A stretch of 32,000 bases of DNA from Candidatus Nanoarchaeia archaeon (GCA_028279745.1 JANQNC010000001.1:420001-452000); one strand, 5' to 3'. Numbered from the stretch's first letter, positions 7,973 through 30,115 are shown. Numbers and translations are program-made. Notes: generated by a model not told the origin, from the letters alone.

Positions 7973-8040
7973 CTATATAGAAAATAATTCCATAAAACTT
8001 TTAATTTTTGATGAATATTTTTAATCATAATTGTAACTAA

Positions 8041-8146
8041 AACTTATAATCAAATATTAAATGTTTTAACTACCCTTATGCCAATAACTTTTAATCAAAT
8101 CTTAAAATTTATTGATAATCTTAATAACTGAAACTTATAAGCATAA
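8041..8146 (+). repeat. three 15-bp direct repeats AACTT(A/T)TAA(T/G)CA(A/T)A(T/A) at 45-46 bp spacing
   Basis: 8041-8055 aacttataatcaaat, 8086-8100 aacttttaatcaaat (14/15 identical) and 8132-8146 aacttataagcataa (12/15). They lie upstream of the 8221 gene. Confidence 0.65.
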
Positions 8147-10851: not shown

Positions 10852-10926
10852 CCAACGTCATCTAATGTTTCTTAAACGAACATTCAGAAATCTTTATATA
10901 TAATAACTACAAGTTCTAGGTGTAAA

Positions 10927-11466
10927 ATGGTAACAATGACAAATTTAACAGAAAATGACATAAAAAACATGGCACAAGAAGCAAAACCATACCTAAGAAT
11001 AAGACTTCCTGACCAGTTTGAGGAATATGTTAAACTACTAAACAACCCAAACCCAACAGAAAAGGATCAAAGAATATCATTATTTCTAAAAGCAAGAATG
11101 ATGACCTGGTCAATTGAGTCAAGACAAGCTTTAGCAGATTCATACGCAATAAACTACCAACTCGCAGCAGAAGAAAGCCAAGAAGACCAAATGTTAGAAA
11201 ATGCAAGAAAGTATGAACTGGCAGACCTTCTTATCAAAACAAACCAACAAGAACACCAAGAAAGAGAAAAACTTGCTGAAAAACTAGTTCAGAACGAATT
11301 ACACTTCAGCCAAGAACAAAACTTGGAAGAAAGCGTATTAATCGAGAATCTTTTTACCAATCACCCAAATGTTGAAAGAAAATACGCAAAAGAGTACATC
11401 ACCACAGTAAATAGGCAATATGTACCAAAAGACAGAAGAACATTTCAAATGGTTGCAAACCAGTAA
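10927..11466 (+). CDS. hypothetical helical protein (orphan)
   Basis: 179 aa, Q/E-rich with clean coding periodicity. Its stop lies 1 nt before the next ATG, suggesting an operon with the tandem-STAS gene. Confidence 0.55.
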   Translation: MVTMTNLTENDIKNMAQEAKPYLRIRLPDQFEEYVKLLNNPNPTEKDQRISLFLKARMMTWSIESRQALADSYAINYQLAAEESQEDQMLENARKYELADLLIKTNQQEHQEREKLAEKLVQNELHFSQEQNLEESVLIENLFTNHPNVERKYAKEYITTVNRQYVPKDRRTFQMVANQ

Positions 11467-11467
11467 A

Positions 11468-12106
11468 ATGTACAAAAAACTAGAAATAAGCCAACAAGAG
11501 ATAAATGAAGGTAGTAAAAGTAACCACCTTCATGATAAAATAAACCAGGCAATGCAAGAAACAGACCATCTACTTATAGACTTACAGAACACAGACTATC
11601 TAGCAAGCTGGGGACTTGGGATGTTATTAACTGCACAAAAAGGCATGAAAGACAAACAAGGAAGTCTTGGAATAGTGAATTTATCAAAAAGAGGAAGAGA
11701 TCTACTTAAAGAAGCCAACCAAGAAGGAATGCTGCCATTATATGACTGCGAACAAGAATATAAAAACAGTCTAAACCAAAACGATAAAAAAATAAATTAT
11801 AATATAACAAAAGTAGAAGAAATCGAAACATCAGCAGAAGAAAAGCTACTAGAACGCCTAGAGACAAAAGTTAAAGACTCAGAAAATCTAATTATAGATC
11901 TAATAGACACAAAATACATATCAAGCGCAATATTCAGCGTATTAACACGTATAAACTACCAAATGAAAGAGAAAAAAGGCAGGATGGGAATAATAAATCC
12001 TCCCTCAACAACAGAAGAAATAATAAAAGACCTTAATCTTTACCCTTCACTAGAAATATACGAAAGCGAACAAGAATTTAGAGAATATCTAGAAACAAAA
12101 CAATAA
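11468..12106 (+). CDS. tandem STAS-domain (SpoIIAA/anti-sigma-antagonist-like) protein
   Basis: 212 aa from ATG 11468. Two internal repeats: HLLIDLQNTDYLASWGLGMLL...GSLGIVNLSKRGRDLL...LPLYDCEQEY and NLIIDLIDTKYISSAIFSVLT...GRMGIINPPSTTEEII...LEIYESEQEF. Both fit the [LIV]D[LM]xxVx[FY][IM]DSxG[LI]xxL...GxLxLxN...[IL][YF] STAS pattern. Confidence 0.5.
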   Translation: MYKKLEISQQEINEGSKSNHLHDKINQAMQETDHLLIDLQNTDYLASWGLGMLLTAQKGMKDKQGSLGIVNLSKRGRDLLKEANQEGMLPLYDCEQEYKNSLNQNDKKINYNITKVEEIETSAEEKLLERLETKVKDSENLIIDLIDTKYISSAIFSVLTRINYQMKEKKGRMGIINPPSTTEEIIKDLNLYPSLEIYESEQEFREYLETKQ

Positions 12107-12125
12107 ATAAAACCAGAGGTGGACT

Positions 12126-12938
12126 ATGAAAAAGCTTGAAACAGAACTAAAATTAAGAGCGTTCAGCCAAAAAACAATACAAGCCTACATATACCACAAC
12201 ACAGAATTCTTAAAATTCATAGAAAAAGACGAAGAAAAAATAACCGAAGATGACATAAAACTATACTTAGCACATGTAATGACAGAAAAAGAATACAAAC
12301 CTGCTTCTACCAATCTTTGCCTAAGTGCATTGAAGTTCTACTATCAAGAAATACTAGGTAAAAACATATTTGCAAAGATAAAAGCTCCAAAACTAGAAAA
12401 AAAGTTGCCAACAGTATTAACAAAAGACGAGATGAGCAAACTAATATCTGCAGCAACAAACCCAAAACACAGATTGTTAGTAGAGTTGATGTATAGTAGC
12501 GGATTGCGGGTTTCAGAAGTTGTAAACATGAAAATAGACGACTTAGACCTTAACGAAAGAATGGGAAAAGTAATAGCAGGAAAAGGAAAAAAAGACAGAC
12601 ACATAATACTCTCAGAAGCACTATGCGAGCATTTAGAGGATTATCTAGTTGAGAGAGATGACAACAATCCTTACGTGTTTAATATACGAGAAACACACAT
12701 AACAGTAAGACAAGCACAAAGAGTAGTCAAAAGTTTAGCTTTGAAAGCAGGAATAAAGAAAAGAGTGTTTTGTCATGCGTTAAGAAGCTCATTTGCAACA
12801 CACCTATTGGAAAGTGGAACAGACATACGTATAATACAAGAATTGTTGGGACATAGTAATTTGCAAACTACTGAAAGATACACAAAAGTAAGCACAGAGC
12901 AATTAAAGAAAGTAAAAAGTCCTTTGGATGATATGTGA
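12126..12938 (+). CDS. xerA: tyrosine recombinase, XerA/XerC-like
   Basis: N-terminal SAM-like core-binding domain (LRAFSQKTIQAYIYHNTEFLKF) and catalytic residues in GLRVSEV (R), HALRSSFATHLL (HxxR) and LGHSNLQTTERYTKV (H, Y). GAGGTGG lies 5 nt upstream of the ATG. Confidence 0.85.
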   Translation: MKKLETELKLRAFSQKTIQAYIYHNTEFLKFIEKDEEKITEDDIKLYLAHVMTEKEYKPASTNLCLSALKFYYQEILGKNIFAKIKAPKLEKKLPTVLTKDEMSKLISAATNPKHRLLVELMYSSGLRVSEVVNMKIDDLDLNERMGKVIAGKGKKDRHIILSEALCEHLEDYLVERDDNNPYVFNIRETHITVRQAQRVVKSLALKAGIKKRVFCHALRSSFATHLLESGTDIRIIQELLGHSNLQTTERYTKVSTEQLKKVKSPLDDM

Positions 12939-14336
12939 TCATTTCTTGAGTTTAGTTATTAGGACGATTAAAGCAATCTCTATCCAGAATATAAAAAGAA
13001 TTTCTACAATAGCTAAATGATGTTGAACCAAAGAATGAACTAAAGTTGCTGAAATTGAACAGATCAAACCAATCATTAACGCATTGAAACCTTGCTTTTT
13101 GATGAATGAGAAGGTTGTTTTGTATATCCTAGCAAGAAGCCAGATGAATGCAGCCAATGCAAATATTCCTGTCTCTGCAGCGATAATCAAGAAATAGTTA
13201 TAGACATAATGCTGATATCCTACTTGGTTTATTGCCATATATGAACCAAGACCCCCACCAAATAAAGGGTTCTGCCTGAATAAGTCTAACCCAAGATTCC
13301 AATAATGAACTCTACCACTAGCAAAATTAGAGTCTAACTTCTCATCAAATATTTGGAAAGCATTTCTGCAAAACACGTTATGAGTGCATGAACGAGTATC
13401 CTTAATAGAGAACAAAAAAACAGAAGATAGCACAACCAAAACTAAGATTATTGTTGCAATTATCTTATGATGTTTAGCAAAAGAAAACTCCTTTTTGAAA
13501 GATAAGATTATCAATAAAAGAATGCCTGCAAAAACACCAACAAGGGCGCCAGCAGATATCGACAAGATAAGTGCTATGGATGAGAAAATTGCCATAAAGA
13601 TGTAAAACCAATGCTTCTTTTCCTTATTAAAGAACGCGAGAGAGAACGCTAAAGGAACTATTAGAGTCAAATAACCCCCAAATTCATTAGAATCATAAAA
13701 GTCTGCAGAAGCCGCATAATGACTTTTCACAACCTGAAAAACAGCAAAAGAACATACAAAAAAAGCAGACAAAAGCAATAAGAAAACAATATTATTAATT
13801 TGTTTTTTTGTTTTAATCGTGTTAACGATTAAGTAGAAAAATGCAATAACCTCCACAATGTTAAACAACAGATACATGAAAAAATAAGGATCCCAAGGCT
13901 GGATGACAAGGATGTGGTTAAGCCTAGAGAAAAAAGTTCCAAACGAAGGATTAATTTTTGTGAAGAATAATAATGAGGACAACAAAATTAGCAACAGATA
14001 AGCAATTATGGGCTTATCTAAAGGTGTTTTTATGAATAATTTTTCTTTATTGGTTGCCTTTTTTATGACGAAAGCGAGGAACACAGATAAGAAAATGAGT
14101 TCTATAATTGAGAAAGGAAATGGGCCAAATCTCTCACCAAACCTTACAAGTAATGGAGCCAAAAAAACAACAAGATAAACCCCATATTCTGGCTTGAATA
14201 GAGTAATCGTGAATGATAAAAGTATGAACATTAGCGTTATCGGATAACTTAAGAAAGGAAGAATGAAAAAACCACAAAGTAAGATTAGAAAAACAATTAT
14301 CAAAGAATAAATCAACGAATTATTTCTCTCAGCCAT
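12939..14336 (-). CDS. O-antigen ligase-like (Wzy_C domain) polytopic membrane protein, paralog 1
   Basis: About 11-12 TM segments. Loop motif GGGLGSYMAIN...YQHYVYNYFLIIAAETGIFALAAF resembles the Wzy_C signature. Start moved to ATG 14336 (MAERNNSL) because the ORF-track start at 14396 is a TTG. Confidence 0.7.
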   Translation of the reverse strand: MAERNNSLIYSLIIVFLILLCGFFILPFLSYPITLMFILLSFTITLFKPEYGVYLVVFLAPLLVRFGERFGPFPFSIIELIFLSVFLAFVIKKATNKEKLFIKTPLDKPIIAYLLLILLSSLLFFTKINPSFGTFFSRLNHILVIQPWDPYFFMYLLFNIVEVIAFFYLIVNTIKTKKQINNIVFLLLLSAFFVCSFAVFQVVKSHYAASADFYDSNEFGGYLTLIVPLAFSLAFFNKEKKHWFYIFMAIFSSIALILSISAGALVGVFAGILLLIILSFKKEFSFAKHHKIIATIILVLVVLSSVFLFSIKDTRSCTHNVFCRNAFQIFDEKLDSNFASGRVHYWNLGLDLFRQNPLFGGGLGSYMAINQVGYQHYVYNYFLIIAAETGIFALAAFIWLLARIYKTTFSFIKKQGFNALMIGLICSISATLVHSLVQHHLAIVEILFIFWIEIALIVLITKLKK

Positions 14337-14360
14337 CCTAGAGATAAAATGTATGAAAGG

Positions 14361-14370
14361 ATTTATAAAT
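14361..14370. promoter_or_regulatory. palindromic TATA box ATTTATAAAT shared by divergent genes
   Basis: The sequence is self-complementary. Its centre lies about 29-30 nt from each divergent start codon, ATG 14336 (minus) and ATG 14396 (plus). This is close to the TATA-to-ATG spacing seen at other leaderless genes in the window. Confidence 0.45.
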
Positions 14371-14395
14371 ATTCTTATCAGATAAAAGAGAAACA

Positions 14396-15799
14396 ATGAA
14401 AGAGAAAGGCAACAAAACCGCGAATATTCTGCTTGTAATACCTATAATAATCATCGCACTTGCAATACTAAGAACACCTTTGCCAGTCATCATATCATGC
14501 ATACTTTTACTTGCTTTCTACTTGAAACACCCACACCAAGCAATACTAATATACGCATTAATCTTAGTGCCTTCAAAAGTACTTAACTATTATTTTGGAG
14601 GAGGGTATGTTTCGATGCCAAAAACACTATTTTTACCTCTACTAATCGGATGGATAGTTATGCTCACAAAAGGAAAAAAAATCAAAAAAACAAGGTTAGA
14701 TCTGCCAATTTTGGTGTTTGGCGCACTGACCTTAATCTCGGGTTTAATCACGTTTTTCATAACCCCAAAAAGCACGACAGCATTTAGTTATCTTCTTCAA
14801 AGCTTTACAAACTTAGTGCCAATAACATCGCCTTACGCATTCATATTCTACACCACCAACACTTTGATAGGACTGCTTGCTTTCTTTTTCATAACAAACC
14901 ACATAGAAGACATCAAACAAATAAAAAACATAATGTTTGCATTTCTCATTTCAGGCATACCTTTAGCAATACACGCAATAATAGAGGCAATAATCACACC
15001 TTCCAGGACTGGCGTGAAAACAATATTTTTCGACCCAAATTTTTTCATATCATATCTAAGCTTTCCAATGGTATTCTCAATAGGTATGTTATTTATAGCA
15101 AGTAGATGGAGAGCAAAATTATCTTATCTAGCTGCCGCATTGCTGTTTAGTGCTGTCTGGGTTTTATCAAAATCAACAGCAGGCTGGGGAGGGATGATAG
15201 TTGCATTAGCAATCTTCTTTTTCGTGCTAAGCAAGAATAAGATAGTAAAGTGGAGATACCCAATAATAATCACAATACTTATCATCATTTCGACCTTGTT
15301 CTTATCAACACAATACTCCGGAGAGCTATTAAAAGAAACCCCTTTATCTAACATACAAACAGAAGTATACTGGACTGTTCATTCTGATGATATAAACGAG
15401 CTTACAAGCGAAAGAGTAGAACGGTTCTGGGCACATGGCTGGGAACTGATTAAAGAAAAACCGTTGATTGGACATGGGTTTGGAAGAACATTCAAAATGC
15501 ACTGGGGCACTCTGTCCCCCCTACACAACCACTACATACAGTTAGCAGCAGATGCAGGAATCTTTTATCTTCTTGCGTTCATATGGATTGTTGTGATGAT
15601 CTATGTTGAAGGGGTGAGAAGGCTAAAAACATACCCTGTGCTGACTGTAACATTGATAGCAGCAATAACAACAACAATACTGCATCTAGTGGCACAAACG
15701 CTCTTTATACTGAATGAGATAAACCTATTATTCTGGATAGTTTTGGGATTATTGGTTGCGATACCTTCAAAAATCCAAAATAAAAAATCTAAGAAATGA
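14396..15799 (+). CDS. O-antigen ligase-like (Wzy_C domain) polytopic membrane protein, paralog 2
   Basis: 467 aa with about 12 TM segments. Motif GHGFGRTFK...LHNHYIQLAADAGIFYLLAF is Wzy_C-like. Confidence 0.7.
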   Translation: MKEKGNKTANILLVIPIIIIALAILRTPLPVIISCILLLAFYLKHPHQAILIYALILVPSKVLNYYFGGGYVSMPKTLFLPLLIGWIVMLTKGKKIKKTRLDLPILVFGALTLISGLITFFITPKSTTAFSYLLQSFTNLVPITSPYAFIFYTTNTLIGLLAFFFITNHIEDIKQIKNIMFAFLISGIPLAIHAIIEAIITPSRTGVKTIFFDPNFFISYLSFPMVFSIGMLFIASRWRAKLSYLAAALLFSAVWVLSKSTAGWGGMIVALAIFFFVLSKNKIVKWRYPIIITILIIISTLFLSTQYSGELLKETPLSNIQTEVYWTVHSDDINELTSERVERFWAHGWELIKEKPLIGHGFGRTFKMHWGTLSPLHNHYIQLAADAGIFYLLAFIWIVVMIYVEGVRRLKTYPVLTVTLIAAITTTILHLVAQTLFILNEINLLFWIVLGLLVAIPSKIQNKKSKK

Positions 15800-15860: not shown

Positions 15861-16394
15861 CTATTTTTTTATGATGGACTGGTCAAAACAATCTAGAGTT
15901 ACTGTTCTAGATATGCCAAGAACATTAGATTTAGCTTGCAGTTCCTTAAACGCAGGATCTAAGGTGAAGAAGGCTTTTCCGTTTACATCATTTCTCCTGC
16001 TGTGCTTCTTTATAGGAATAGACTTAGTTATTAGATTATTAAGATAATATCTAACATAAGACTCACTTCTACCGATCCTTTCACACAGATCAGAGTAGCT
16101 CAAGGCCCTGTCTGCAGTATAGAACACCATAAACAACTCCTTCTCCTGCTCAGAAAGATTGATCTTTTTTGGTCGGGGGTTTAAGTTTTTACCTTCAAAT
16201 TTGGCAGCAAAGGCAAGAACAGCATCTAACTTTTTCTCAACAGAACTCAGTCTTTCATCAAGTTCCATAAGGTAAGAGTAGTTATTTTCAATCTCGTTAG
16301 AAGAGTCATTAATCGAGCTCAAATGATCCTCAAGCTCTTCTTTTATGGAGCCCAGCTCCAGTTTCAACTCGGATTTATCACTGTCTTTTTTCAC
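15861..16394 (-). CDS. coiled-coil plus winged-helix/HTH DNA-binding protein (orphan)
   Basis: 177 aa. N-terminal heptad region (LKLELGSIKEELEDHLSSINDSSNEIENNY...VEKKLDAVL) and C-terminal LSEQEKELFMVFYTADRALSYSDLCERIGRSESYVRYYLNNL HTH. GTG start with GGGGGTG 9 nt upstream; the start is uncertain. Confidence 0.6.
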   Translation of the reverse strand: MKKDSDKSELKLELGSIKEELEDHLSSINDSSNEIENNYSYLMELDERLSSVEKKLDAVLAFAAKFEGKNLNPRPKKINLSEQEKELFMVFYTADRALSYSDLCERIGRSESYVRYYLNNLITKSIPIKKHSRRNDVNGKAFFTLDPAFKELQAKSNVLGISRTVTLDCFDQSIIKK

Positions 16395-16535
16395 TATCTA
16401 TGCACCCCCGTACGTATTATGAATGAGGTGGTTTATAAAGATATTTGTTGTAGAAAATCTATATTTTGAAGTTATGTATTCAGTGATGTGGAAAATAAAT
16501 CCAACGTAAGGTTTATATAGTACTTTGGCTTATAA

Positions 16536-17207
16536 ATGACTATGGGGTGGATATTTGGCAGTGAAAAGATAGACTCACTTAAGGAGTCATTGAATAAAAA
16601 TATTTCTAAATTCACAGAATGGATCAGTTATTTTCAGCAAAAAAACAAAGAACAAGATAATAGATTGGCTGAAATAGAAAGAAAGTTATCAGAAAGACAA
16701 GATCCGGATCAGATCCAGTATGTATTTTCACGAATAAATGATCTAGAAGGTTCAAGATTTGGCGGTGAGGAAAGGTCTAGGCTGAATTATGTCTACCAAA
16801 AGATACATGAGCTTGAACAGAAAGGAGACTCAAGGGAGCATATAAGTGTTTTGAGCAATAACCAGATGCATATACTGAATAAGATAAGGGAGTTGGAGGC
16901 TAAGCTAGAAAACAGCGAGAGAAGACCTGTTCAGCAGAATGTTTCAGTGAGAAGTGCGCATGAAAAGATAGTCAAAAAAGTAGTCCAAAAATCCAAAGAT
17001 TATATCAAAAATTCAGTGTTAAATTTAATCAAAAAATACGAGAACATAACAGGCTCACAATTAAAGGAAATAATAGTGGAAGAACAAGGGCTATGTTCAA
17101 AGTCATCTTTCTACAGAATTCTTGATGAGATAGAACAAGAAGAAAAGATAAAATCAGAAAGAAATGGAAGAGAAAAAGTGTACAAATTAGTGCATGTTTT
17201 GAAGTGA
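16536..17207 (+). CDS. coiled-coil plus winged-helix DNA-binding protein (orphan)
   Basis: 223 aa. Long N-terminal coiled coil and a C-terminal MarR/ArsR-like wHTH (VLNLIKKYENITGSQLKEIIVEEQGLCSKSSFYRILDEIEQEEKIKSERNGREKVYKL). TTTATATA at 16512-16519 suggests a leaderless start at the second ATG (16542). Confidence 0.65.
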   Translation: MTMGWIFGSEKIDSLKESLNKNISKFTEWISYFQQKNKEQDNRLAEIERKLSERQDPDQIQYVFSRINDLEGSRFGGEERSRLNYVYQKIHELEQKGDSREHISVLSNNQMHILNKIRELEAKLENSERRPVQQNVSVRSAHEKIVKKVVQKSKDYIKNSVLNLIKKYENITGSQLKEIIVEEQGLCSKSSFYRILDEIEQEEKIKSERNGREKVYKLVHVLK

Positions 17208-17255
17208 TTCTTTAGTTTTTTAGTGAAGTTTTTTTACAATTAATTGTTAATTTAG

Positions 17256-17285
17256 GCAAAATTTTATTCTAAAATTTTGCTTTTT
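17256..17285 (+). terminator. hairpin (11-bp stem, 3-nt loop) followed by T5
   Basis: GCAAAATTTTA-TTC-TAAAATTTTGC (17256-17280) followed by TTTTT (17281-17285). T6/T7 runs and the 12-bp palindrome ACAATTAATTGT (17236-17247) precede it. It lies downstream of the 16536-17207 gene. Confidence 0.45.
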
Positions 17286-17299
17286 GATGGATGGTTGTT

Positions 17300-17570
17300 T
17301 TTCTATTGGGAAAGTCCCAAAAATGCGTTTTATCGACGGTGGGACTGTTTGGGACAATCCCTGGGACAATGGTTAATATAGGCCGCAAATATACCGATAG
17401 TCTTGGGACAGTCCCAGTTTAGTCTTGGGACAGTCCCAGAAAAATAAGGCGTTAGTATATCAGCAAGCGTAAAACAAAAGAATAACAGATTTAATTGTCC
17501 CAGAATAGTCTTGGGACAGTCCTGGGACAGTCCCAGAATAGGTGTTTGAGACAATTGAAATGGGACTACT
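17300..17570. repeat. cluster of GGGAC/GTCCC half-sites including three perfect 13-bp dyads TGGGAC-A-GTCCCA
   Basis: Perfect dyads at 17404-17416, 17426-17438 and 17523-17535; near-perfect at 17512-17523; variant TGGGAAAGTCCCA at 17307-17319. The 20-mer TAGTCTTGGGACAGTCCCAG occurs in tandem (17398-17417 and 17420-17439), with a 17-nt copy at 17506-17522. Extra half-sites at 17341, 17351, 17363, 17497 and 17562. Confidence 0.9.
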
Positions 17571-17588
17571 GGCGTAAAAAACACGGTG

Positions 17589-17990
17589 AAAACCGGGTTA
17601 AAATTTAGCCAAAAATCGATGAAAAAAATAGGCCTAAAAATGGCAAAAAAAGTAGGGGTTTTGATGGCATAAAATCTGGCAAAAAAATTAACCAAAAAAT
17701 AGTCTAAAAATATGCCCTTTATAAAGGAAAATGGGCAAAAATGAGCAAAAAAGGAGGCTAAAATGGCCTTCTTTTAGCAAAAGTGAGAGTTAATTTTGGG
17801 CAAAAACACACAAAAATCAAAGATTTTTGGTCCACTTGGCGTGGATGGCCAAAATTTGGCAAAAAGTGAGGGTTATTTTAGGGAATGATTTGGGGCAGAT
17901 GCGAAAAATGGCCAAAATTGGACAAAATACAACAAAAAGTGAGAGTAGAAATAGGCATAAATTTGGAAAAAATCTAAAATATCGAAAAAT
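17589..17990. repeat. helically phased A-tracts (intrinsically curved DNA candidate)
   Basis: A4-A7 tracts start at 17589, 17600, 17611, 17622, 17636, 17645, 17671, 17681, 17694, 17706, 17728, 17737, 17747 and 17760. That is 171 bp over about 16 helical steps, or about 10.7 bp per step. Phasing continues at 17904/17914/17924/17934 and 17967/17976/17985. Many tracts are preceded by GGC or GCC. Confidence 0.75.
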
Positions 17991-18216
17991 ATTAGATTTA
18001 ATGAAATCAGCATATATTGGAAAAACGAAAAGTGAGAGTTGTGTAAAAGGTTTAATCAAACCCCCAAATTGAAAATTGAGAGCAAATATATGAAAAATAA
18101 GAGAAAGTCCAAAAATGAGGGGGTTATGGCAGTTTAAAGGTAAATAGTGAGACTAGACCAGTTAATAGATGTAGTTGGAGAGCCAAATAGGTGCCAAAAA
18201 TACGAAAAGTGAGAAT
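17779..18216 (+). repeat. seven same-orientation copies of a 12-nt motif AAAAGTGAGAGT (iteron-like)
   Basis: 17779-17790, 17935-17946 and 18028-18039 are exact. 17862-17873 (..GGGT) and 18205-18216 (..GAAT) each differ by one base. Degenerate copies at 18072-18083 (AAAATTGAGAGC) and 18142-18153 (AAATAGTGAGAC). Spacing varies from 42 to 93 bp. Confidence 0.85.
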
Positions 18217-18222
18217 TAAGCC

Positions 18223-19146
18223 CTATTTCATAGGCTCAGAACCAACCACAAAGAACTGTTTACCGTCAAAAACCCAGCTTACCTTCTGTTTACCGTCGAG
18301 AACCTTCTCGACACGTTTAGAAATTCTTGCAACTTCATCAGTAAAACGCTCTTCCATCACCTGCAGTTTCATTTTATCGTCGGAAAGAGTCTTGTTAATT
18401 GTTTTTCCTGTTTCTTTATCTCTTGTGAACATCAAAGTCTTTTCGCCGATATTGGATTGTTTTAATTCGTTTGAGTCTTTATCAACAATATAAACGTCTG
18501 GAGAATTTTTTTCTAAGCCTTCTAATGATCCGAAAACAGCTTCAATTACCACTTCATCAGCGTCGGAAGAAGGGTTTTTTGTGTAAGCAATGCCAGAGAA
18601 TTCAGCATCAACACTTTGCTGAACAACTATCGGTAATGAGATATTTTTCCAATCATAGTTATTCTTCTTCAAGTATAGAATATTTTTTGCTGTGAATATA
18701 GAAGAGTAACAAGCCTTGACATGTTTGATTAATTCTTCAGCACCTTTAACATCTGTAAAGAATTCTTGGAGTAATGCAGTTAGTGCTTCGTCTTCTACAG
18801 CAGGACTGATCTTTACAGAGACCAAAGGAGAATCTTTTTCTGAAAGGTTATCAGCAGATAAAGTGTCGTAAGCATCTTCTATCTCGTCGTTGCTGAAGTT
18901 TTTCTCCATGATCAATAGTTGAATCTTTCTAGCTGCAAATTTGATCTCATCAGGGTTTTCTGTGTCTACACCTTCCATTATACTATCAATACCCAGATTA
19001 TGAACGAATGAGAAATATGTCTTTGAAGGAATAACAAAACCAATAGGCACATTAAGTGCTGTCTTGAAAATCTTGCTAAGAGTTAGAGCGTTGGTTCCAA
19101 CTTCACTTTTGTCTGTGTCTTTAATGTTATTTAGCCAGTATATCAT
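18223..19146 (-). CDS. stand-alone PPDK_N-like (PEP/pyruvate-utilising enzyme ATP-grasp) domain protein, motifs divergent
   Basis: 307 aa from ATG 19146. VGTNALTLSKIFKTALNVPIGFVIPSKTY and PIVVQQSVDAEFSGIAYTKNP...EAVFGSLEGL align to the VGGKxxNL...VPxGF and VVQxMVxxxxSGVxFTxxP...GLGExxV motifs of the PEP synthase/PPDK N-terminal domain. No swivel-His or PEP-binding domain follows. Confidence 0.65.
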   Translation of the reverse strand: MIYWLNNIKDTDKSEVGTNALTLSKIFKTALNVPIGFVIPSKTYFSFVHNLGIDSIMEGVDTENPDEIKFAARKIQLLIMEKNFSNDEIEDAYDTLSADNLSEKDSPLVSVKISPAVEDEALTALLQEFFTDVKGAEELIKHVKACYSSIFTAKNILYLKKNNYDWKNISLPIVVQQSVDAEFSGIAYTKNPSSDADEVVIEAVFGSLEGLEKNSPDVYIVDKDSNELKQSNIGEKTLMFTRDKETGKTINKTLSDDKMKLQVMEERFTDEVARISKRVEKVLDGKQKVSWVFDGKQFFVVGSEPMK

Positions 19147-19147
19147 C

Positions 19148-19663
19148 TTAAGCACCGAATATTAAAGAAAATATCCCTCTACCAGTTAATGTAATTATCG
19201 TTACTAAGATTCCCGCAATAGTAACACCTATCGTATTTGCTATTACGAACTTCTTGAAATCTAAACCTATCAAATGAGATCCTAAAGCTCCAGAGTAAGA
19301 ACCTGAGCCCGGAAGCGGGACGCTGATGAATAAAGCCACACCCAGAAGTCCGAATCTGTCAACAAACTTAGTAATCTTCTTTTGAGTTCTCCTGACAAAG
19401 AATTGGTAGATGTTATCAATGAATTTTATCTTTGTGACTACACCTACAAATTTGTTTAAGAGTATGAATATAACTGGGCCAAGAATTGCATTAGCAATTA
19501 CACATGTGAAGAAAACTAACATCCAATGCATGCCAAAGCCAGAAGCCTCAATTCCAAATGGAAGGTTAACACTTCCTGCCAGAATCCCCAAAGGAATACT
19601 AAACCTTAGCTCAACAAAAGGAATGCAAGTGACTAACGCAAGAATGATTATTTCTTTAAGCAT
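19148..19663 (-). CDS. small membrane protein, COG2426/small multidrug export-like (PF06695-like)
   Basis: 171 aa with 4-5 TM segments. The N-terminal IPFVELRFSIPLGILAG motif resembles the P-x-x-E-L-R-x-x-I-P signature. Its stop lies 1 nt before the downstream ATG. Confidence 0.6.
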   Translation of the reverse strand: MLKEIIILALVTCIPFVELRFSIPLGILAGSVNLPFGIEASGFGMHWMLVFFTCVIANAILGPVIFILLNKFVGVVTKIKFIDNIYQFFVRRTQKKITKFVDRFGLLGVALFISVPLPGSGSYSGALGSHLIGLDFKKFVIANTIGVTIAGILVTIITLTGRGIFSLIFGA

Positions 19664-25689: not shown

Positions 25690-26565
25690 TTATTTCTTAC
25701 CTTGCAATGCAATTAAATCTGCAGTTGTAAGTTTCTTGCCTGTTTTAAGTTTCTCTTCAGCTTCTTTGCCTTTCTCGGCAATCAGCTCAGACTCTTTTTT
25801 CTTTTTCTTCTTGACTTTTTCAGCCTTAATCTCACCAAGCTCTTTACCGAACTCGTTAGCTTCAGTCAATTTCTCTTTTAACTTATCGTTAAGCTTGTTG
25901 AACTCTTCCTTAAACTTAAAGAACTTCTTATAAGCTTCATCCTCTTTTAGTTTCAGCTCATCAACTTCTTTTGACAATGAAAGAACAAGTTCGTGCTGCT
26001 CTTGACTTTCAGTAGCCTCAGTCTGGATGTTTTTGTGTACAGAATCTGCCTTATTCTTAGCTTCCCTTATCTTCTTGTTAAGTTCGCTAATCTTCTCCCA
26101 AACATCACTAACCTTCTTAACCTCGTTATACTGCTTCTTCAAATCTTTAATCTGCTTCATGAGCTTCTTTTCAGCCTCAAGCTTCAAAGCTTCAGTCTCC
26201 ATCCGGGTCTCTAATTTCTCAATATCTTCCTTAAGCCGTTCAGGATTTCCTTTAATCTTATACTTACTGATTATCTTTTCTTTCTCATCCTTAAGAGTTT
26301 TAACTTCATTCAAAAGAGCGTTAACTTCTTTGTTATATTTATCTCTCTCCCCCTTCTCAGTCTTAACCTTGCTGGTGGATTTGTCTCTCTTCTTCTTAGA
26401 ACTCTTAACATCAGAGATAATAGAAACTATCTTCTTCTTGAAATCTTCCTTCTTCTTAAACCAAGCTTCTTTCTGGTCATTAACCTGATTAAGCTCTTTC
26501 TTAAGATCAGAAATCTCAGTTCTCAGTTCGTCAAACTTCTTACGAAGCTGTTGGTTATCTGGCAT
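25690..26565 (-). CDS. long coiled-coil protein (archaeal COG1340-like)
   Basis: 291 aa from ATG 26565 (the ORF-track start at 26577 is a GTG). Almost entirely heptad-rich K/E sequence. Family assignment is from memory of archaeal coiled-coil proteins and is tentative. Confidence 0.55.
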   Translation of the reverse strand: MPDNQQLRKKFDELRTEISDLKKELNQVNDQKEAWFKKKEDFKKKIVSIISDVKSSKKKRDKSTSKVKTEKGERDKYNKEVNALLNEVKTLKDEKEKIISKYKIKGNPERLKEDIEKLETRMETEALKLEAEKKLMKQIKDLKKQYNEVKKVSDVWEKISELNKKIREAKNKADSVHKNIQTEATESQEQHELVLSLSKEVDELKLKEDEAYKKFFKFKEEFNKLNDKLKEKLTEANEFGKELGEIKAEKVKKKKKKESELIAEKGKEAEEKLKTGKKLTTADLIALQGKK

Positions 26566-26644
26566 TTGTCCACTCACGTTTTAAATTTAAAAAAGTTAAA
26601 AATTGAGATTCTTACGAACCCCCTTCTAAAGTCAAAAGTTGATT

Positions 26645-26962
26645 TTATCCGAACAGACTGCCTAAACCAGCAGCAGCTTCTTCTTCAGATTTTTTCTCTT
26701 CTTCTTCCTTTTTCTCTTCTTTAGCTTCTCCACCTTCAGCAGGCGCAGCACCAGCAGCAGCTGCAGGCGCAGCGGCAGCAACAGGTACAGCAGCAGATTC
26801 GATAGCTTTCTCGATGTCAACACCGTCTAGAGCAGCTACTAAAGCCTTAACTCTTGTGTCGTCCACCTGAACGCCAGCAGCTTCTAAAACTTTCTTAACA
26901 GAAGCTTCATCTACTTTACCTCCAGCTTTGTGGATTAGCATTGCTGCATACACATATTCCAT
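26645..26962 (-). CDS. rpl12: 50S ribosomal stalk protein P1 (L12)
   Basis: [17 protein letters not shown]..., an Ala/Pro hinge, an acidic tail and the terminal GLGSLFG. GGAGG lies 8 nt upstream of ATG 26962, favouring it over ATG 26977. Confidence 0.9.
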
Positions 26963-26990
26963 TTTGCTTTCCTCCATAATTAATTATTAT

Positions 26991-28049
26991 CTATTGATTC
27001 TCCTTTTCCTCATGCTTTGTCTCACGAGGTTCATCAGCACCACCTGCTTCAGGCTGAGTTAGAGGTGCTGTGCTTTCTTCTTTCTTTTCTTCTTTTGGTT
27101 GTTCTTCGGACTTTTCTTCTGAAGGTTCTTCCTTTTTCTCTTCTTCCTTAGGCTCTTCTTTCTTATCTTCCTCTTTAGCTTCTTCTTTAGGAACCTCATC
27201 AGTTATGTTAGCTGTTGACTTAAGTGAAAGCATCTGTCTTTCTGCTTTAGTCAATAACTCTTCAGCAACAACATCTGCCATGATGTTTTGTTCTAAAGCC
27301 AAAGCCTTTGAATCTGTAAACGCTTTCTTTATCAACAACTCAGTGTTGTCTGCAGTTGGATAAGCTGCTTCAAACGCGAGGTTGAAAGCCCATCTTGAAG
27401 CTTGTGAAATGTTGTCAAGGTATTCTTGTTCATCTATTGCAAGAACTTTCTTATCGAATAAAGTGCCGTCAGCATAAACGTGAGTCAGATTAAGACCAAT
27501 CTCCATCGGCTCAATACCTAATCTTAGTAAGATTGAAGATAAGTTTTCATCAATAACATCGCCTTCTTTAGCAACAGTTGCGTCCTCTTTAATCGCAACT
27601 TTACCATCCTCAATTCCTGCTTTAAGTCCAACATTTCCTAGTTCTGAAATGATCGGACCAGGTGCGAACTGTGTAGGTCCTGCTTGAACAACAATATCTT
27701 TAGGTGCAACACTTCCTGCCTTAGCAGGCGCACTACTTTTGCTCTTATCTAAAGTCTTGTAAAGCGTAAAAGGGTTATCTGATGTAAATAATAAAGCAGG
27801 CATTCCTGCTAATTTTTCTTTTAACTCTTCAATCCCTGGTTTATCTTTAACCTGTTCAAAAGCCAGTCTGAACAATCTTTTTCTGCCCATAACTATAGTA
27901 ACAGTTTCTCTTAAAGACCCTCTCATCTTTGCCAATTGAGCTGCAGGCAAAGAAGTCATATCTAAAAGACCGACAACTTTAGCTTCAGAAATAAGCTTTG
28001 CATATTTCTTAACTGCATCCTTTTTCCAGTCAGCAACGTGAGCAGTCAT
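26991..28049 (-). CDS. rpl10: 50S ribosomal stalk protein P0 (L10)
   Basis: The N-terminal L10 domain (VADWKKDAVKKYAKLISEAKVVGLLDMTSLPAAQLAKMR) and position between L1 and P1 fit P0. The C-terminal K/E-rich tail lacks the GLGxLFG-type end. Confidence 0.9.
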   Translation of the reverse strand: MTAHVADWKKDAVKKYAKLISEAKVVGLLDMTSLPAAQLAKMRGSLRETVTIVMGRKRLFRLAFEQVKDKPGIEELKEKLAGMPALLFTSDNPFTLYKTLDKSKSSAPAKAGSVAPKDIVVQAGPTQFAPGPIISELGNVGLKAGIEDGKVAIKEDATVAKEGDVIDENLSSILLRLGIEPMEIGLNLTHVYADGTLFDKKVLAIDEQEYLDNISQASRWAFNLAFEAAYPTADNTELLIKKAFTDSKALALEQNIMADVVAEELLTKAERQMLSLKSTANITDEVPKEEAKEEDKKEEPKEEEKKEEPSEEKSEEQPKEEKKEESTAPLTQPEAGGADEPRETKHEEKENQ

Positions 28050-28702
28050 GGTTTCACCTCGATAGGTTTTCCCATGGAAGTCTTAATGTAAACCAGATTA
28101 AGGTTATTTTTCTCGTTAGGTAAATCGTGAATCAGTGCATTGTATAATGTAAGAATGTTTTCTGCAATCTCCTCATCAGGCATATCTTCTGTGCCAACTC
28201 TCATCTGAGCCATCTGCTGTGTTCTTACAACCATCCTGACAGTTTTTTGTAATCTCTCTATAAGAGGTTTTAAGTTTGCTTTAGGAGGTACAACACAACC
28301 TGCCTTAGGGTTTGGCATCTTATTCCTAGGACCTAGGATTCTACCAAATGATTGAGCGATCTTTGGCATTATATTTGCTTGAGCAACAAAGAAATCATAC
28401 TCATCAGCTAATTTCTTAACTTTTTTCTTATCTTTAGCATAATCTGCAAAACTGTCAGAGTCAACTACAAAATCCGCATTTTCAGTAGCGTTCGCTTTCA
28501 ACTCAGGGCCAACTAAAGCACAAACCTTAGTCTTCTTTCCTCTATTGAAAGGAAGATTAATGAATAAGTCAACCTGATCACTAGGCTTTTTTAGATTAAG
28601 ACCTTTCAGTGCAAATATTACATCAAATGATTGTGAGAACTTACGCTTCTTAGAAGCTTCCCTTACTTTCTTAATTTCTTCGATTAGTTGTTTTATATCC
28701 AA
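28046..28702 (-). CDS. rpl1: 50S ribosomal protein L1
   Basis: GPRNKMPNPKAGCVVPP and the overall L1 pattern. TTG start with AAGGTGG 6 nt upstream. 4-nt overlap with the P0 start. Confidence 0.9.
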   Translation of the reverse strand: MDIKQLIEEIKKVREASKKRKFSQSFDVIFALKGLNLKKPSDQVDLFINLPFNRGKKTKVCALVGPELKANATENADFVVDSDSFADYAKDKKKVKKLADEYDFFVAQANIMPKIAQSFGRILGPRNKMPNPKAGCVVPPKANLKPLIERLQKTVRMVVRTQQMAQMRVGTEDMPDEEIAENILTLYNALIHDLPNEKNNLNLVYIKTSMGKPIEVKP

Positions 28703-28801
28703 TTAAACCACCTTCTTCCCTTCTATCTCCAGGATAGTCTTTGGGAAAAGTATATGTAAGAAGTCGGCAGGGAGTATTTAAAGGTTATGGTTTTTTGTAT
28801 A

Positions 28802-29470
28802 TCACCTTAAAGACATATCAGAATAAGCATATTTTTGAGGAAGTTCACCAAATTCACAATATTCACAAGTAGGATCCAGGAAAATCCAGTCATCGTTAAC
28901 TTTGTATCTGTTATTTGCATCAGGAAGCCAAGCTTGAACCATGACATGTCTTGGAAAGAAAACAAATCTAGTCTTTATGCCGACGGACTGCAATAGGTTT
29001 GCCAATAAGATTGAATGACCATCACAATCATCCCCGCCAGAGTAAAGCATTTCAGAAGATGACATCAAATACTCCCCACTTTCACCCACATAGTTAAAAT
29101 TGTCTCTCACAAAATAAAATAACGCTTTTGAATGACATATCTTATCACTATCACAAGCAATCGTTACAACTTTATTTGCGACTTGTTTAACAACCGGCTC
29201 TTCAGGATGAAGATTAGCAAAATAACTGGATGAATTGTATGTGACTACTTCAAACTCTGCAGGCAATACTTCATCTAAACTTGGAATCTCTTTCGGACTG
29301 GGATCAAACTTTAGATGGTAGAATGGGAATATGAATATCAAGACCATTAAAGCTAGCGCAATCGCTAGGATGACTTTAATTGGACCTTTGTATTTCGATT
29401 CTTCCTCTGGAACCAGTTCATCTTCGTCCAGTTCGGGGATGTGATGTACATGATGTTTTTCTTTTTTCAT
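28802..29470 (-). CDS. membrane-anchored transglutaminase-like cysteine protease domain protein
   Basis: N-terminal TM segment (VILAIALALMVLIFIFPFY). Cys-His-Asp core in GGDDCDGHSILLANLLQSVGIKTRFV, RHVMVQAW and FLDPT. Confidence 0.75.
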   Translation of the reverse strand: MKKEKHHVHHIPELDEDELVPEEESKYKGPIKVILAIALALMVLIFIFPFYHLKFDPSPKEIPSLDEVLPAEFEVVTYNSSSYFANLHPEEPVVKQVANKVVTIACDSDKICHSKALFYFVRDNFNYVGESGEYLMSSSEMLYSGGDDCDGHSILLANLLQSVGIKTRFVFFPRHVMVQAWLPDANNRYKVNDDWIFLDPTCEYCEFGELPQKYAYSDMSLR

Positions 29471-29623
29471 TTTTTCATAAAGTGCGAATTTATGAGCACC
29501 TATATTTGCAGTTAGTTCTGTTTTTGCTTTTTATGCTTGTGTTCTTGGGTTAGTTAATGTTGGTTTTGTTTATTCTTCCTTAAATACATATGCTAGTGGT
29601 GCTCCTCTTGTTACACCTTTTTG

Positions 29624-30115
29624 CTACCTTCTTTTAACATTCTTAAACATATGAACAAAAACTTCTTGAGGCACTTCTATTCCAGCCTCAACAAAATACT
29701 TAGCATACTTGTAACCATCTTCCGCACTTGATGCAGTAAATCTTGAAATCCTCTGTAAAGTAGCTTTTGATAAAAAACCATCATTAAAACCTAAAGCAAC
29801 CTCTTTCTTACCCTTCAAAAAAGAGAAAGTCTTTGCATTAGCAACAACCTCTTTCTTTTTCCACAACTTTTCTTCCTTGACAAAACCATGATTATGTAAT
29901 TCCCACTCAGTTAAATGCTGGAGCAGTTCTTTATTTGTAACTCGTTTACCTTCTAACCCAGAAAATTTCATGAAATCAATGTTTTTGGTCTTCTTAAAAG
30001 GAAAAACTCTACCAATATACTTAACAGTTGTTTGGGATGTTTTGCCATCAACCCATTTATTTTTAACAAAATAGGCATAAACATTATTATTAACTTTTTT
30101 AGTACGGATAAACAT
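29624..30115 (-). CDS. hypothetical protein (orphan)
   Basis: 163 aa. The N-terminus MFIRTKKVNNNVYAYFVKNKWVDGKTSQTTVKYIGRV resembles a beta-hairpin motif seen at the N-termini of IS1634-type transposases and various orphan proteins (from memory). No catalytic domain is present. Confidence 0.5.
   Translation of the reverse strand: MFIRTKKVNNNVYAYFVKNKWVDGKTSQTTVKYIGRVFPFKKTKNIDFMKFSGLEGKRVTNKELLQHLTEWELHNHGFVKEEKLWKKKEVVANAKTFSFLKGKKEVALGFNDGFLSKATLQRISRFTASSAEDGYKYAKYFVEAGIEVPQEVFVHMFKNVKRR

Follow-up and report, generated by a model that had tools for sequence, protein, structure and literature searches.

What does a gene-free stretch of about 1 kb do in the genome of a DPANN archaeon, a member of a group with very small, densely packed genomes in which hardly any DNA transaction has been characterised by experiment? 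The question is raised by a stretch of 32,000 nucleotides from Candidatus Nanoarchaeia archaeon (GCA_028279745.1, JANQNC010000001.1:420001-452000; referred to as the window), in which positions 17208-18222 (1,015 bp) form the largest gap between credible open reading frames (ORFs), the next real gaps measuring ~300 bp or less. The gap follows the gene of a 223-amino-acid (aa) protein (16536..17207, + strand; GENE in the following), which is itself next to the gene of a 177-aa protein (15861..16394, − strand; PARTNER). An original prediction made from the sequence had read the repeats in the gap and the two winged-helix proteins as a candidate undescribed origin, centromere-like or regulatory system. 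We observe that a non-coding element of 0.3 to 2.4 kb and an unannotated protein family are conserved together, spanning at least 231 protein clusters and ~80 species-level genomes. On comparative sequence evidence, the element is most likely a conserved cis-element specific to Woesearchaeota/Nanoarchaeota-type DPANN archaea, and the function that we favour, tentatively and with rather less than even confidence, is the control of the GENE-PARTNER and methyltransferase-Rpo11 operons, the element serving as their architectural control region or as an elaborate operator under autoregulation.

The window is AT-rich (~34% GC) and comes from a DPANN archaeon of Woesearchaeota type. It encodes eIF2-gamma, L10P, a CCA-adding enzyme, NOG1, Rpb4/Rpb7, and S6e/S24e, and homologues of its genes carry the annotation Woesearchaeota or Nanoarchaeota. 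Identical protein sequences are found on an NCBI contig of 1.30 Mb and on a Logan contig of run SRR20820740. The claim that the ~1-kb stretch lacks a credible ORF holds, the ORFs within it being of low complexity only, and the accompanying description of the window as more than 90% coding is roughly right (82% with ATG-start ORFs alone, higher once GTG and TTG starts are counted).

Iteron arrays are linked to GENE across genomes

The comparative set consists of 80 species-representative genome loci and a few metagenome contigs, with 83 loci entering the linkage counts and 10 kb of flank available for comparison on each side. Motif statistics on non-coding regions are based on 69 related regions or arrays, and gene order on all-against-all ORF clustering over the 83 loci together with oriented maps. 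Two motifs are referred to throughout, the iteron (a TGGGAMT-type 8-bp site) and the K-box (a AAAAGTGAGAGTT-type box of 13 bp).

The expectation that the repeats and their setting would recur in related genomes was borne out, as they lie beside GENE homologues of 30 to 62% protein identity in ~80 species-level genomes. The densest 300-bp cluster of GGGA[AC]/[GT]TCCC sites in ~20 kb is located no more than 500 bp from the GENE match in 81 of 83 loci, a proximity with a chance of ~0.18 per locus, and the median enrichment is 12-fold. A triple-iteron pattern adjoins GENE only, in the 1.2 Mb that these loci comprise, and is single per locus. When metagenomes were scanned for three phased iterons irrespective of GENE, five extra true cases were found, while 75 of the 80 returned loci were unrelated simple repeats. 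As separate observations, most other pattern matches are simple GGGAAT/GTCCCA satellites, and an unrelated metagenome contig of 39% GC (L094, 9870-9960) carries an 11-bp-phased GGGAAT array and no GENE homologue.

Across the family, 750 iteron sites generate the logo T-GGGA-[A/C]-T-[A/G], with 5 to 22 copies per locus. Spacings between same-strand iterons are most often 11 bp (n = 233), with smaller numbers at 10 (n = 59), 12 (n = 28), 22 (n = 46) and 33 bp (n = 22), and this dominance of 11 bp indicates that the family-wide unit is a direct-repeat iteron, placed once per helical turn. The dyad symmetry that had been taken as the basic unit is thus a lineage-specific form, and TGGGAC-A-GTCCCA dyads are a variant common to the window and its closest relative, L002.

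In the window, the iteron module (17307..17568) carries nine TGGGA[AC] sites on the + strand and five on the − strand. The predicted cluster of GGGAC/GTCCC sites is confirmed, with 13 of the 22 GGGAC sites in the window falling within 17314-17566 (253 bp), as are the three perfect dyads (17404-17416, 17426-17438 and 17523-17535), which are accompanied by an imperfect one at 17307-17319. Matches to TGGGACAGTCCCA with up to two mismatches number 11 in the window versus 0.19 expected (~50-fold), 10 of them being located within 17307-17535, and the module furthermore contains a perfectly duplicated 22-bp unit (17398-17439, 100% identical).

The array abuts the GENE start in 58 loci, which we refer to as canonical, and in these TATA-like elements are found at both array edges (e.g., AAAGGTTTAAATAGTAG in L033, L075 and L077). 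Inverted iterons make up 27% of the sites in the 30 bp nearest GENE versus 0 to 14% elsewhere, are present among the three GENE-proximal sites in 35 of these 58 loci, and adjoin TATA-like boxes 30 to 60 nt from the GENE start. Judging by these positions, the canonical loci appear to have sites abutting GENE's own promoter, as in an autoregulated operator; the window does not. In addition, 34 of the 69 iteron arrays are interrupted by a near-palindromic dyad box of 15 bp, TTTATCGACGATAAA. Its copy in the window (TTTATCGACGGTGGG, 17328..17342) is degenerate, with four mismatches to the consensus, and is missed by a scan allowing three or fewer. A link between this box and PARTNER was considered and set aside as weakly supported, the box being found in the PARTNER promoter of L088 and L089 and not in those of L090-L093 (≤3 mismatches).

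GENE and PARTNER encode members of conserved winged-helix families

GENE encodes long, coiled-coil-like N-terminal helices followed by a C-terminal winged helix, and its AlphaFold2 model has a single winged helix-turn-helix (wHTH) domain with a predicted local distance difference test score above 90 over residues 150-220. Its family, which forms at least 231 clusters at 50% identity with membership at E ≤ 1e-30, includes hundreds of homologues of ~200 to 310 aa without fused domains, and the C-terminal wHTH is extremely conserved, with LCSKSSFYR in the recognition helix invariant across the family. Sequence searches of Pfam, NCBIfam, PHROGs and PDB with GENE gave only sub-threshold wHTH or coiled-coil noise, and Foldseek gave generic wHTH matches only (the Hop2 winged helix, the cullin WHB domain, PadR/LmrR, and TubR, 6aht, at rank 36). 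From the co-occurrence described above, we infer that the GENE product is the iteron-binding protein.

The model of PARTNER has one long helix (residues 4-67) and, at residues 82-145, a MarR/Lrs14-like wHTH, and its fold resembles MarR/MepR and the Lrs14-type AbfR2. In the models, both proteins resemble transcription-factor wHTHs, and the architecture proposed for the pair, an N-terminal coiled coil and a C-terminal wHTH, agrees with the long N-terminal helix and wHTH that AlphaFold gives for each. Neither is an orphan, as had been supposed, since each belongs to a conserved family, and paralogy between the two is not detectable.

Phased A-tracts and K-boxes are ordered relative to the iterons

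The iterons in the window are followed by a module of phased A-tracts on the + strand (17576..17780), made up of degenerate GGC-AAAAA-type units of ~11 to 12 bp, with weaker phasing extending to ~17990. Between 17589 and 17780 there are 16 A-runs with a spectral peak at 11.4 bp, reached by 0 of 500 dinucleotide shuffles; between 17570 and 17990 the peak lies at 12.0 bp (again 0 of 500), and Tandem Repeats Finder reports a period of 10 to 11. The phasing that had been predicted is therefore present, with a period of 11.4 bp in place of 10.7 bp, and 43 other loci likewise show A-tracts, phased at 10.5 to 11.75 bp, on the downstream side of their iteron arrays.

The K-box module (17779..18217) contains seven AAAAGTGAGAGTT-type boxes, all on the + strand and at the predicted places. 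The starts of these AAAAGTGAGAGT-like boxes are 17779, 17935 and 18028 (the three perfect 12-mers), 17862 and 18205 (one mismatch), and 18072 and 18143 (two mismatches), at start-to-start spacings of 44 to 93 bp. The number of boxes in the entire window at two or fewer mismatches (11 versus 7.7 expected) is not significant on its own, and the significance of the K-box comes from its conservation in other genomes: boxes of the form AAAGTGAG / AAAAGTGAG(A)GTT are found in 51 of 69 regions, with 147 copies versus 7.4 expected. They always have the orientation of the iterons, lie on the side away from GENE, number up to 11 per locus, and have a median spacing of 83 bp. Furthermore, A/T content oscillates with a period of ~10.5 bp that is phase-locked to the K-box over at least five turns upstream, with peaks at −2, −12, −23, −33, −44 and −54 and troughs between them. 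This is a DNA-shape signal and not an RNA signature. The order and orientation of the three modules are conserved, and by this comparison the modules appear to be ancient. A CRISPR (clustered regularly interspaced short palindromic repeats) array was rejected, given a repeat core of 13 nt, the 44- to 93-bp spacing, and spacers that are conserved between related genomes.

With respect to a functionless origin of the region, either as chance low complexity or as a decaying pseudogene, two observations point that way: the top strand has a composition like that of coding strands, and the K-box count in the window is unremarkable. Against it stands the recurrence of all three motif classes, with order and orientation unchanged, in ~70 species-level genomes at 30 to 40% identity of the neighbouring protein. 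In addition, no conserved ORF was found within the 69 related regions, where 28 of 31 small ORFs are singletons and the other three are Rpo11 genes resulting from mis-bounding of the region. The conservation across genomes effectively refutes chance or decay, to which we give next to no credence.

The last K-box has a particular relation to the neighbouring rRNA methyltransferase gene, lying 11 to 25 nt before its first ATG in 29 of 56 loci and 11 to 18 nt before it in 22. Among 874 genes, 42 of the 44 start-proximal AAGTGAG sites are located at methyltransferase genes, and the generic motif before starts is GGAGGTG, so the K-box was discarded as a general Shine-Dalgarno sequence. It was likewise ruled out as the start of small ORFs, in the window and across loci, and is disfavoured as a transcription start with a TATA box at −27, a position that coincides with an A/T trough. 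In four loci (L046, L048, L050 and L059), the cis-motif overlaps the first codons of the gene, the last K-box supplying the in-frame GTG start of an RsmE-type methyltransferase (AAAA-GTG-AGA-GTT-CG = MRVR...; protein MRVRLY...). As an observation apart from this, AGTGCCTAAC-like words (GTGCC, TGCCT, GCCTA, CTAAC) are 6- to 8-fold enriched at −20 to −4 of the starts of many unrelated families (L008-L087 and the window) and are present in both orientations inside the K-box regions; this motif may be a lineage-specific promoter or 5′-end element.

An alternative is that the A-rich and K-box part acts as RNA, forming an extended 5′ leader to the methyltransferase-Rpo11 operon or, in the window, a free-standing non-coding RNA, with the K-boxes serving as RNA motifs. 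This reading gains from the top strand, in which purines prevail as they do in coding strands (A 41, G 21, T 27 and C 11%, with AT and GC skew both positive in the window), from a BRE/TATA-like element at the array edge that points into the region in one clade, and from the last K-box itself, which directly adjoins the start codon and has bases in common with a GAGG(T) Shine-Dalgarno-like word. We nevertheless consider it improbable, since folding four related regions jointly with RNAalifold yields −3.5 kcal/mol over 324 columns and essentially no covariation, the helical period of A/T content locked to the K-box has the character of DNA shape, and the generic Shine-Dalgarno word differs from the K-box. 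There is no Rfam match at either gathering or permissive thresholds (E up to 5), and scans for tRNA and tmRNA returned nothing.

Gene order suggests control of two divergent operons

We observe the same gene order in most of the 69 loci: XerA (or a 167-aa protein), PARTNER and GENE pointing leftward, the iterons, the K-boxes, and, pointing rightward, the rRNA methyltransferase (RsmD-like or RsmE-like), Rpo11, AMMECR1 and, further on, L1, L10 and L12. PARTNER is next to GENE in 70 of 82 loci and is normally co-oriented downstream of it. A different arrangement is found in six loci with the closest PARTNER relatives (L088-L093, Woesearchaeota), in which the methyltransferase gene, pointing leftward, is followed by PARTNER in the opposite orientation and by Xer, with a 150- to 200-bp spacer. 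PARTNER, methyltransferase and Xer remain in these loci, and GENE, iterons and K-boxes are all absent from this position. Their joint absence indicates that GENE, iterons and K-boxes behave as one unit and that PARTNER is independent of them. The repeats and an adjacent wHTH gene do form a single system, as predicted, in that they recur together and are lost together; the 223-aa protein tracks the repeats, and the 177-aa protein, which had been named as a second partner, persists without them.

In the window and in L002, L003, L010 and L011, GENE alone is inverted. In the window, PARTNER is divergent from GENE, the element lies between two gene 3′ ends, and the methyltransferase side is gone, with L1, L10 and L12 and a 170-aa family found at 25690-30115 on the opposite strand. 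The gene that directly abuts the last K-box (18223-19155) has a PPDK_N (ATP-grasp) domain only, at 310 aa, the related family elsewhere measuring ~609 aa, and its position is consistent with an inversion breakpoint or with a split phosphoenolpyruvate-synthase-like gene. The missing methyltransferase side, the ribosomal protein genes on the other strand, and the PPDK_N gene at the K-box module together point to a large inversion that broke the K-box/methyltransferase junction, and the window is, as far as gene order can tell, a rearranged derivative of the ancestral layout.

From the observed motifs, their spacing and conservation, the linkage to GENE and the gene order, we infer how the proteins might bind, polymerise, wrap the DNA, and regulate. 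The element consists of four parts, namely 5 to 22 iterons at one per helical turn, the interspersed dyad box TTTATCGACGATAAA, phased A-tracts, and K-boxes about every 80 bp. On the iterons, copies of the 223-aa protein would line up head to tail on a single DNA face, contacting their sites through the invariant wHTH, and a dimer would occupy the inverted sites beside the protein's own promoter. The coiled coil would provide dimerisation or bridging. The intrinsically bent K-box DNA could then be wrapped into the same complex, giving a positioned nucleoprotein assembly 0.3 to 1 kb long that, in the ancestral layout, would fill the whole space between the GENE-PARTNER and rRNA-methyltransferase-Rpo11 operons. 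Its primary role would be autoregulated, cooperative control of both divergent operons, and in the window GENE would have been flipped and the methyltransferase side removed by the inversion. Because such an assembly would be placed between divergent operons, and the methyltransferase start follows 11 to 25 nt after the last K-box, control appears to be the most likely role; of the options in the original prediction, a regulatory system fits the ancestral layout best.

Several observations weigh against this control reading, chief among them the state of the window itself. In the window and L002 the array is not in the GENE promoter, and in the window no co-oriented gene follows the K-boxes and no iteron is found in the region between PARTNER and GENE (16395-16535). 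The repeats of the window are nevertheless sharp (three perfect 13-bp dyads, an identical 22-bp duplication and three perfect 12-mers) despite lying between gene 3′ ends, so that a purely promoter-bound role fails unless the inversion is recent. Furthermore, 5 to 22 iterons and up to 11 K-boxes are far beyond what an ordinary operator needs, no ORF follows the K-boxes that lie upstream of the final one, and the A/T trough at the −27 position of a TATA box, counted from the K-box G, means that the K-boxes are not obviously tandem promoters.

A XerA gene and candidate dif site are part of the neighbourhood

XerA is a conserved neighbour in 42 of 82 loci, and in the window a tyrosine recombinase gene of this type (12126..12938, + strand, 270 aa) is identified by Pfam, by NF040815 (259.6 bits, cutoff 220) and by PDB 4a8e (4.5e-51). 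The repeats had also been likened to recombinase arm sites. They are 4.4 kb from the XerA gene, with two to four genes between, and XerA has SAM-like and catalytic domains only, without the N-terminal arm-binding domain of the lambda-Int type. In addition, the enzyme has a dif-like core site of its own elsewhere, which speaks against the arm-site option. This candidate dif (ACGTCATCTAA-TGTTTC-TTAAACGAACA, 10855..10882) has an 11-6-11 structure and a score of 19.0 versus 10.4 for the second best site, and is located just upstream of the operon 10927-12938, of which xerA is the last gene, at 5.7 kb from GENE. A dif inside the repeat region was rejected, there being no 11-6-11 site in 17208-18222.

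The dif sites were sought by a palindrome search near xer, followed by a weight matrix built from the sites so obtained. The palindrome search gave 11-6-11 sites beside xer with the consensus AGTTCGTATAA-N6-TTATACGAACT, and the weight matrix gave a single outstanding intergenic site near xer in ~25 loci, usually 1.3 to 2.3 kb from the start of GENE. In about half of the lineages, neither xer nor dif is found within 10 kb. Several of the dif-like sites share the spacer TGTACC with the dif of Thermococcus kodakarensis, TTTTGATATAATGTACCTTATATGACAA (PMC11840125). The candidate dif is part of the conserved neighbourhood and not of the repeat element, and its association with the element may be plain synteny. 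It appears that dif had not been defined before in this lineage, for which candidate sites are now located. As an observation on the same interval, the window has two tandem, divergently oriented genes for Wzy_C (O-antigen-ligase-like) membrane proteins between xerA and PARTNER (12939-15799), which are absent there in other loci.

The proximity of XerA and dif raises the question of whether the element serves chromosome architecture or segregation, as a centromere-like or SMC (structural maintenance of chromosomes)-related site, with effects on neighbouring operons being secondary, as in parC/ParR or tubC/TubR. Short iteron arrays at 11- to 12-bp spacing upstream of the binder's operon constitute the layout of those two systems, and TubR is among the fold matches of GENE. 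The element is moreover kept in the window with no promoter to serve, is single per locus, and stays together with GENE through rearrangements. A further parallel is the dif region of T. kodakarensis, which is bound by TrmBL2 and stalls Smc-ScpAB (PMC11840125). On the other hand, no ParA, SegA, TubZ or ParM-like NTPase gene is linked to the element, either in the window or among the conserved neighbour families; the lineages without nearby xer or dif leave room for synteny as the cause of the dif proximity; the fixed spacing from K-box to start codon is left unexplained; and the element is missing from its site in L088-L093, which would be surprising in an essential centromere that had not moved elsewhere. 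We regard a segregation role as doubtful on balance, though as the next most likely reading after control. A partition site of plasmid or viral descent, which the original prediction had included, finds no support, as neither viral contigs nor plasmids yielded relatives of GENE, and an NTPase gene is not linked.

Neither gene content nor skew points to a replication origin

In an iteron-type replication origin, GENE would be a non-Orc initiator that acts on the direct repeats and has its operator in the inverted sites at its promoter; the DNA would unwind in the A/T-rich region next to the iterons, and the K-boxes would serve a host factor such as Orc1/Cdc6. The layout does fit, with direct iterons, inverted sites at the gene promoter, an A/T-rich tract, further boxes and an adjacent binder gene, and in L033, L075 and L077 the array is followed by a tract of 100 to 250 bp that is >80% A/T as judged by eye. 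A RecJ/Cdc45-like DHH-DHHA1 protein (472 aa) is encoded within ~5 kb, on the methyltransferase side, in 12 loci (L017 and 11 others). Known archaeal origins furthermore occur as replicator-initiator pairs, one of them with a winged-helix protein (PMC4010727).

The genes expected of an origin were, however, not found nearby. A heuristic screen for Orc1/Cdc6-like Walker-A ORFs (300 to 520 aa) within 10 kb in 83 loci returned a sole match, which looks RFC-like by its N-terminal sequence, and a Pfam scan of the ORFs in the window found no MCM, primase, Rep or ParA gene. Sites of 7 to 8 bp at 11-bp spacing are unlike the 17- to 22-bp iterons of plasmids. Most iterons share a strand, as do all K-boxes, and the K-boxes are not arranged around a DNA unwinding element in the manner of inverted origin recognition boxes. 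The window has no marked AT dip (minimum GC 0.22-0.28 versus 0.34 on average), there are no plasmid or viral relatives, and the spacing from K-box to start is again unexplained.

Skew was analysed at third codon positions, with GC and AT skew resolved into one component that follows the gene strand and another that follows the top strand. To the left of the element the top-strand component ranges from +0.046 to +0.063 and to the right from +0.079 to +0.10, each ~3.5 to 6 standard errors, both flanks being positive without a sign change (69 loci pooled, with 10-kb flanks, non-independent genomes, and expression as a possible confounder). With variable neighbour genes only, the left flank gives +0.045 ± 0.028 and the right flank +0.086 ± 0.024. 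An origin or terminus should flip the sign of the skew, and no flip is seen in these pooled flanks. Together with the lack of an Orc1/Cdc6-like ORF nearby, of a strong AT dip in the window, and of viral or plasmid relatives, this makes the origin proposed in the original prediction unlikely.

The two chromosome-level roles can be joined in a bolder proposal. The element would act in cis at the level of the chromosome in Woesearchaeota-type DPANN archaea, as a non-Orc origin or as a centromere or SMC-organising centre beside dif, and the 223-aa protein would be its dedicated, lineage-specific binding factor. We consider this a possibility worth entertaining, if not a probable one. It would be the first such system defined in any DPANN archaeon, and operon control would be a by-product, as in plasmid parC/ParR.

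Other features near the element

The predicted hairpin with five T residues downstream of GENE (17256..17285, + strand) was found as described, with perfect 11-nt arms (17256-17266 and 17270-17280, 100% complementary, GCAAAATTTTA/TAAAATTTTGC) followed by TTTTT, and is likely the terminator of GENE. The divergent promoter region of PARTNER and GENE (16395..16535) contains neither a dyad box nor a K-box. Intergenic palindromes of the form AAAACTTTTAAT-N5-7-TTAAAAGTTTT are found at 8039-8067 and 8084-8112 in the window and at +1.1 to +1.4 kb from GENE in many loci, and may be bidirectional terminators or promoter elements.

Comparison with known systems

The finding offers a testable protein-DNA pair, with an 8-bp iteron, a 15-bp dyad box, a 13-bp K-box and an invariant recognition helix. 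If the control reading is correct, the element would be among the most elaborate archaeal operators known, governing an operon for an RNA polymerase subunit and an rRNA methyltransferase; if it is instead a chromosome-level site near dif, it would bear on segregation, chromosome organisation and SMC loading in archaea without ParB. For the motifs, for the protein family, and for origins or iterons of DPANN archaea, nothing relevant was found in the searchable literature, and the element appears undescribed.

Operators of the OmpR/PhoB type (pho boxes and the direct-repeat units of Streptomyces PhoP) place winged-helix domains head to tail with 11-bp periodicity, and in extended arrays confer cooperative promoter control. 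The arrays observed here differ in being much longer and in belonging to an archaeal transcription context; moreover, an N-terminal coiled coil takes the place of the receiver domain, and the array occupies a single locus with no regulon as far as seen.

The systems parC/ParR (plasmid R1) and tubC/TubR (pBtoxis-type) have short direct repeats at 11- to 12-bp spacing upstream of the binder's operon, the array doubling as operator, and bind cooperatively along one DNA face, TubR being a wHTH dimer. The canonical loci have the same placement, with the array upstream of the binder's operon, whereas in the window it lies 3′ of GENE. Unlike these systems, the element is chromosomal and lineage-wide, has an extra K-box/A-tract module, and has no plasmid or viral relatives. 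In place of an NTPase of the ParM, TubZ or ParA type, the operon partner is a MarR/Lrs14-like wHTH protein of ~170 aa, and GENE differs from ParR and TubR in its long coiled coil and shares no sequence similarity with them.

Iteron replicons (pPS10 RepA, RK2, P1) have tandem winged-helix Rep proteins and iterons of 17 to 22 bp at 22-bp spacing. Shared with these, and with archaeal replicator-initiator pairs such as oriC3-WhiP in Sulfolobus (PMC4010727), are direct repeats with an inverted operator at the promoter of an adjacent winged-helix gene and an A/T-rich, bent flank with extra boxes. Unlike iteron replicons, the element has 7- to 8-bp sites at 11 bp, a single wHTH, housekeeping synteny, no linked replication genes and no skew inflection over the 10-kb flanks, and its fixed relation of K-box to start points to gene expression.

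For a chromosome-level role, the closest published analogue is the dif boundary of T. kodakarensis, where 1.9 kb of intergenic DNA surrounding dif, rich in AT and A-tracts, is occupied by the filament-forming wHTH protein TrmBL2 and stalls Smc-ScpAB (PMC11840125). TrmBL2 binds genome-wide with little sequence specificity, whereas binding here would be specific to a single array with the gene adjacent, and dif lies inside the T. kodakarensis region but 2 to 6 kb from the element described here, with no dif nearby in half of the lineages. What the two have in common is a long gene-free, A-tract-rich region near dif and XerA, a winged-helix protein (here the putative binder) and possible action through DNA shape. 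The components of the element, a wHTH protein, iterons and phased A-tracts, are thus of known kinds, and what appears new is their combination, their lineage-wide conservation, and their place next to XerA and dif.

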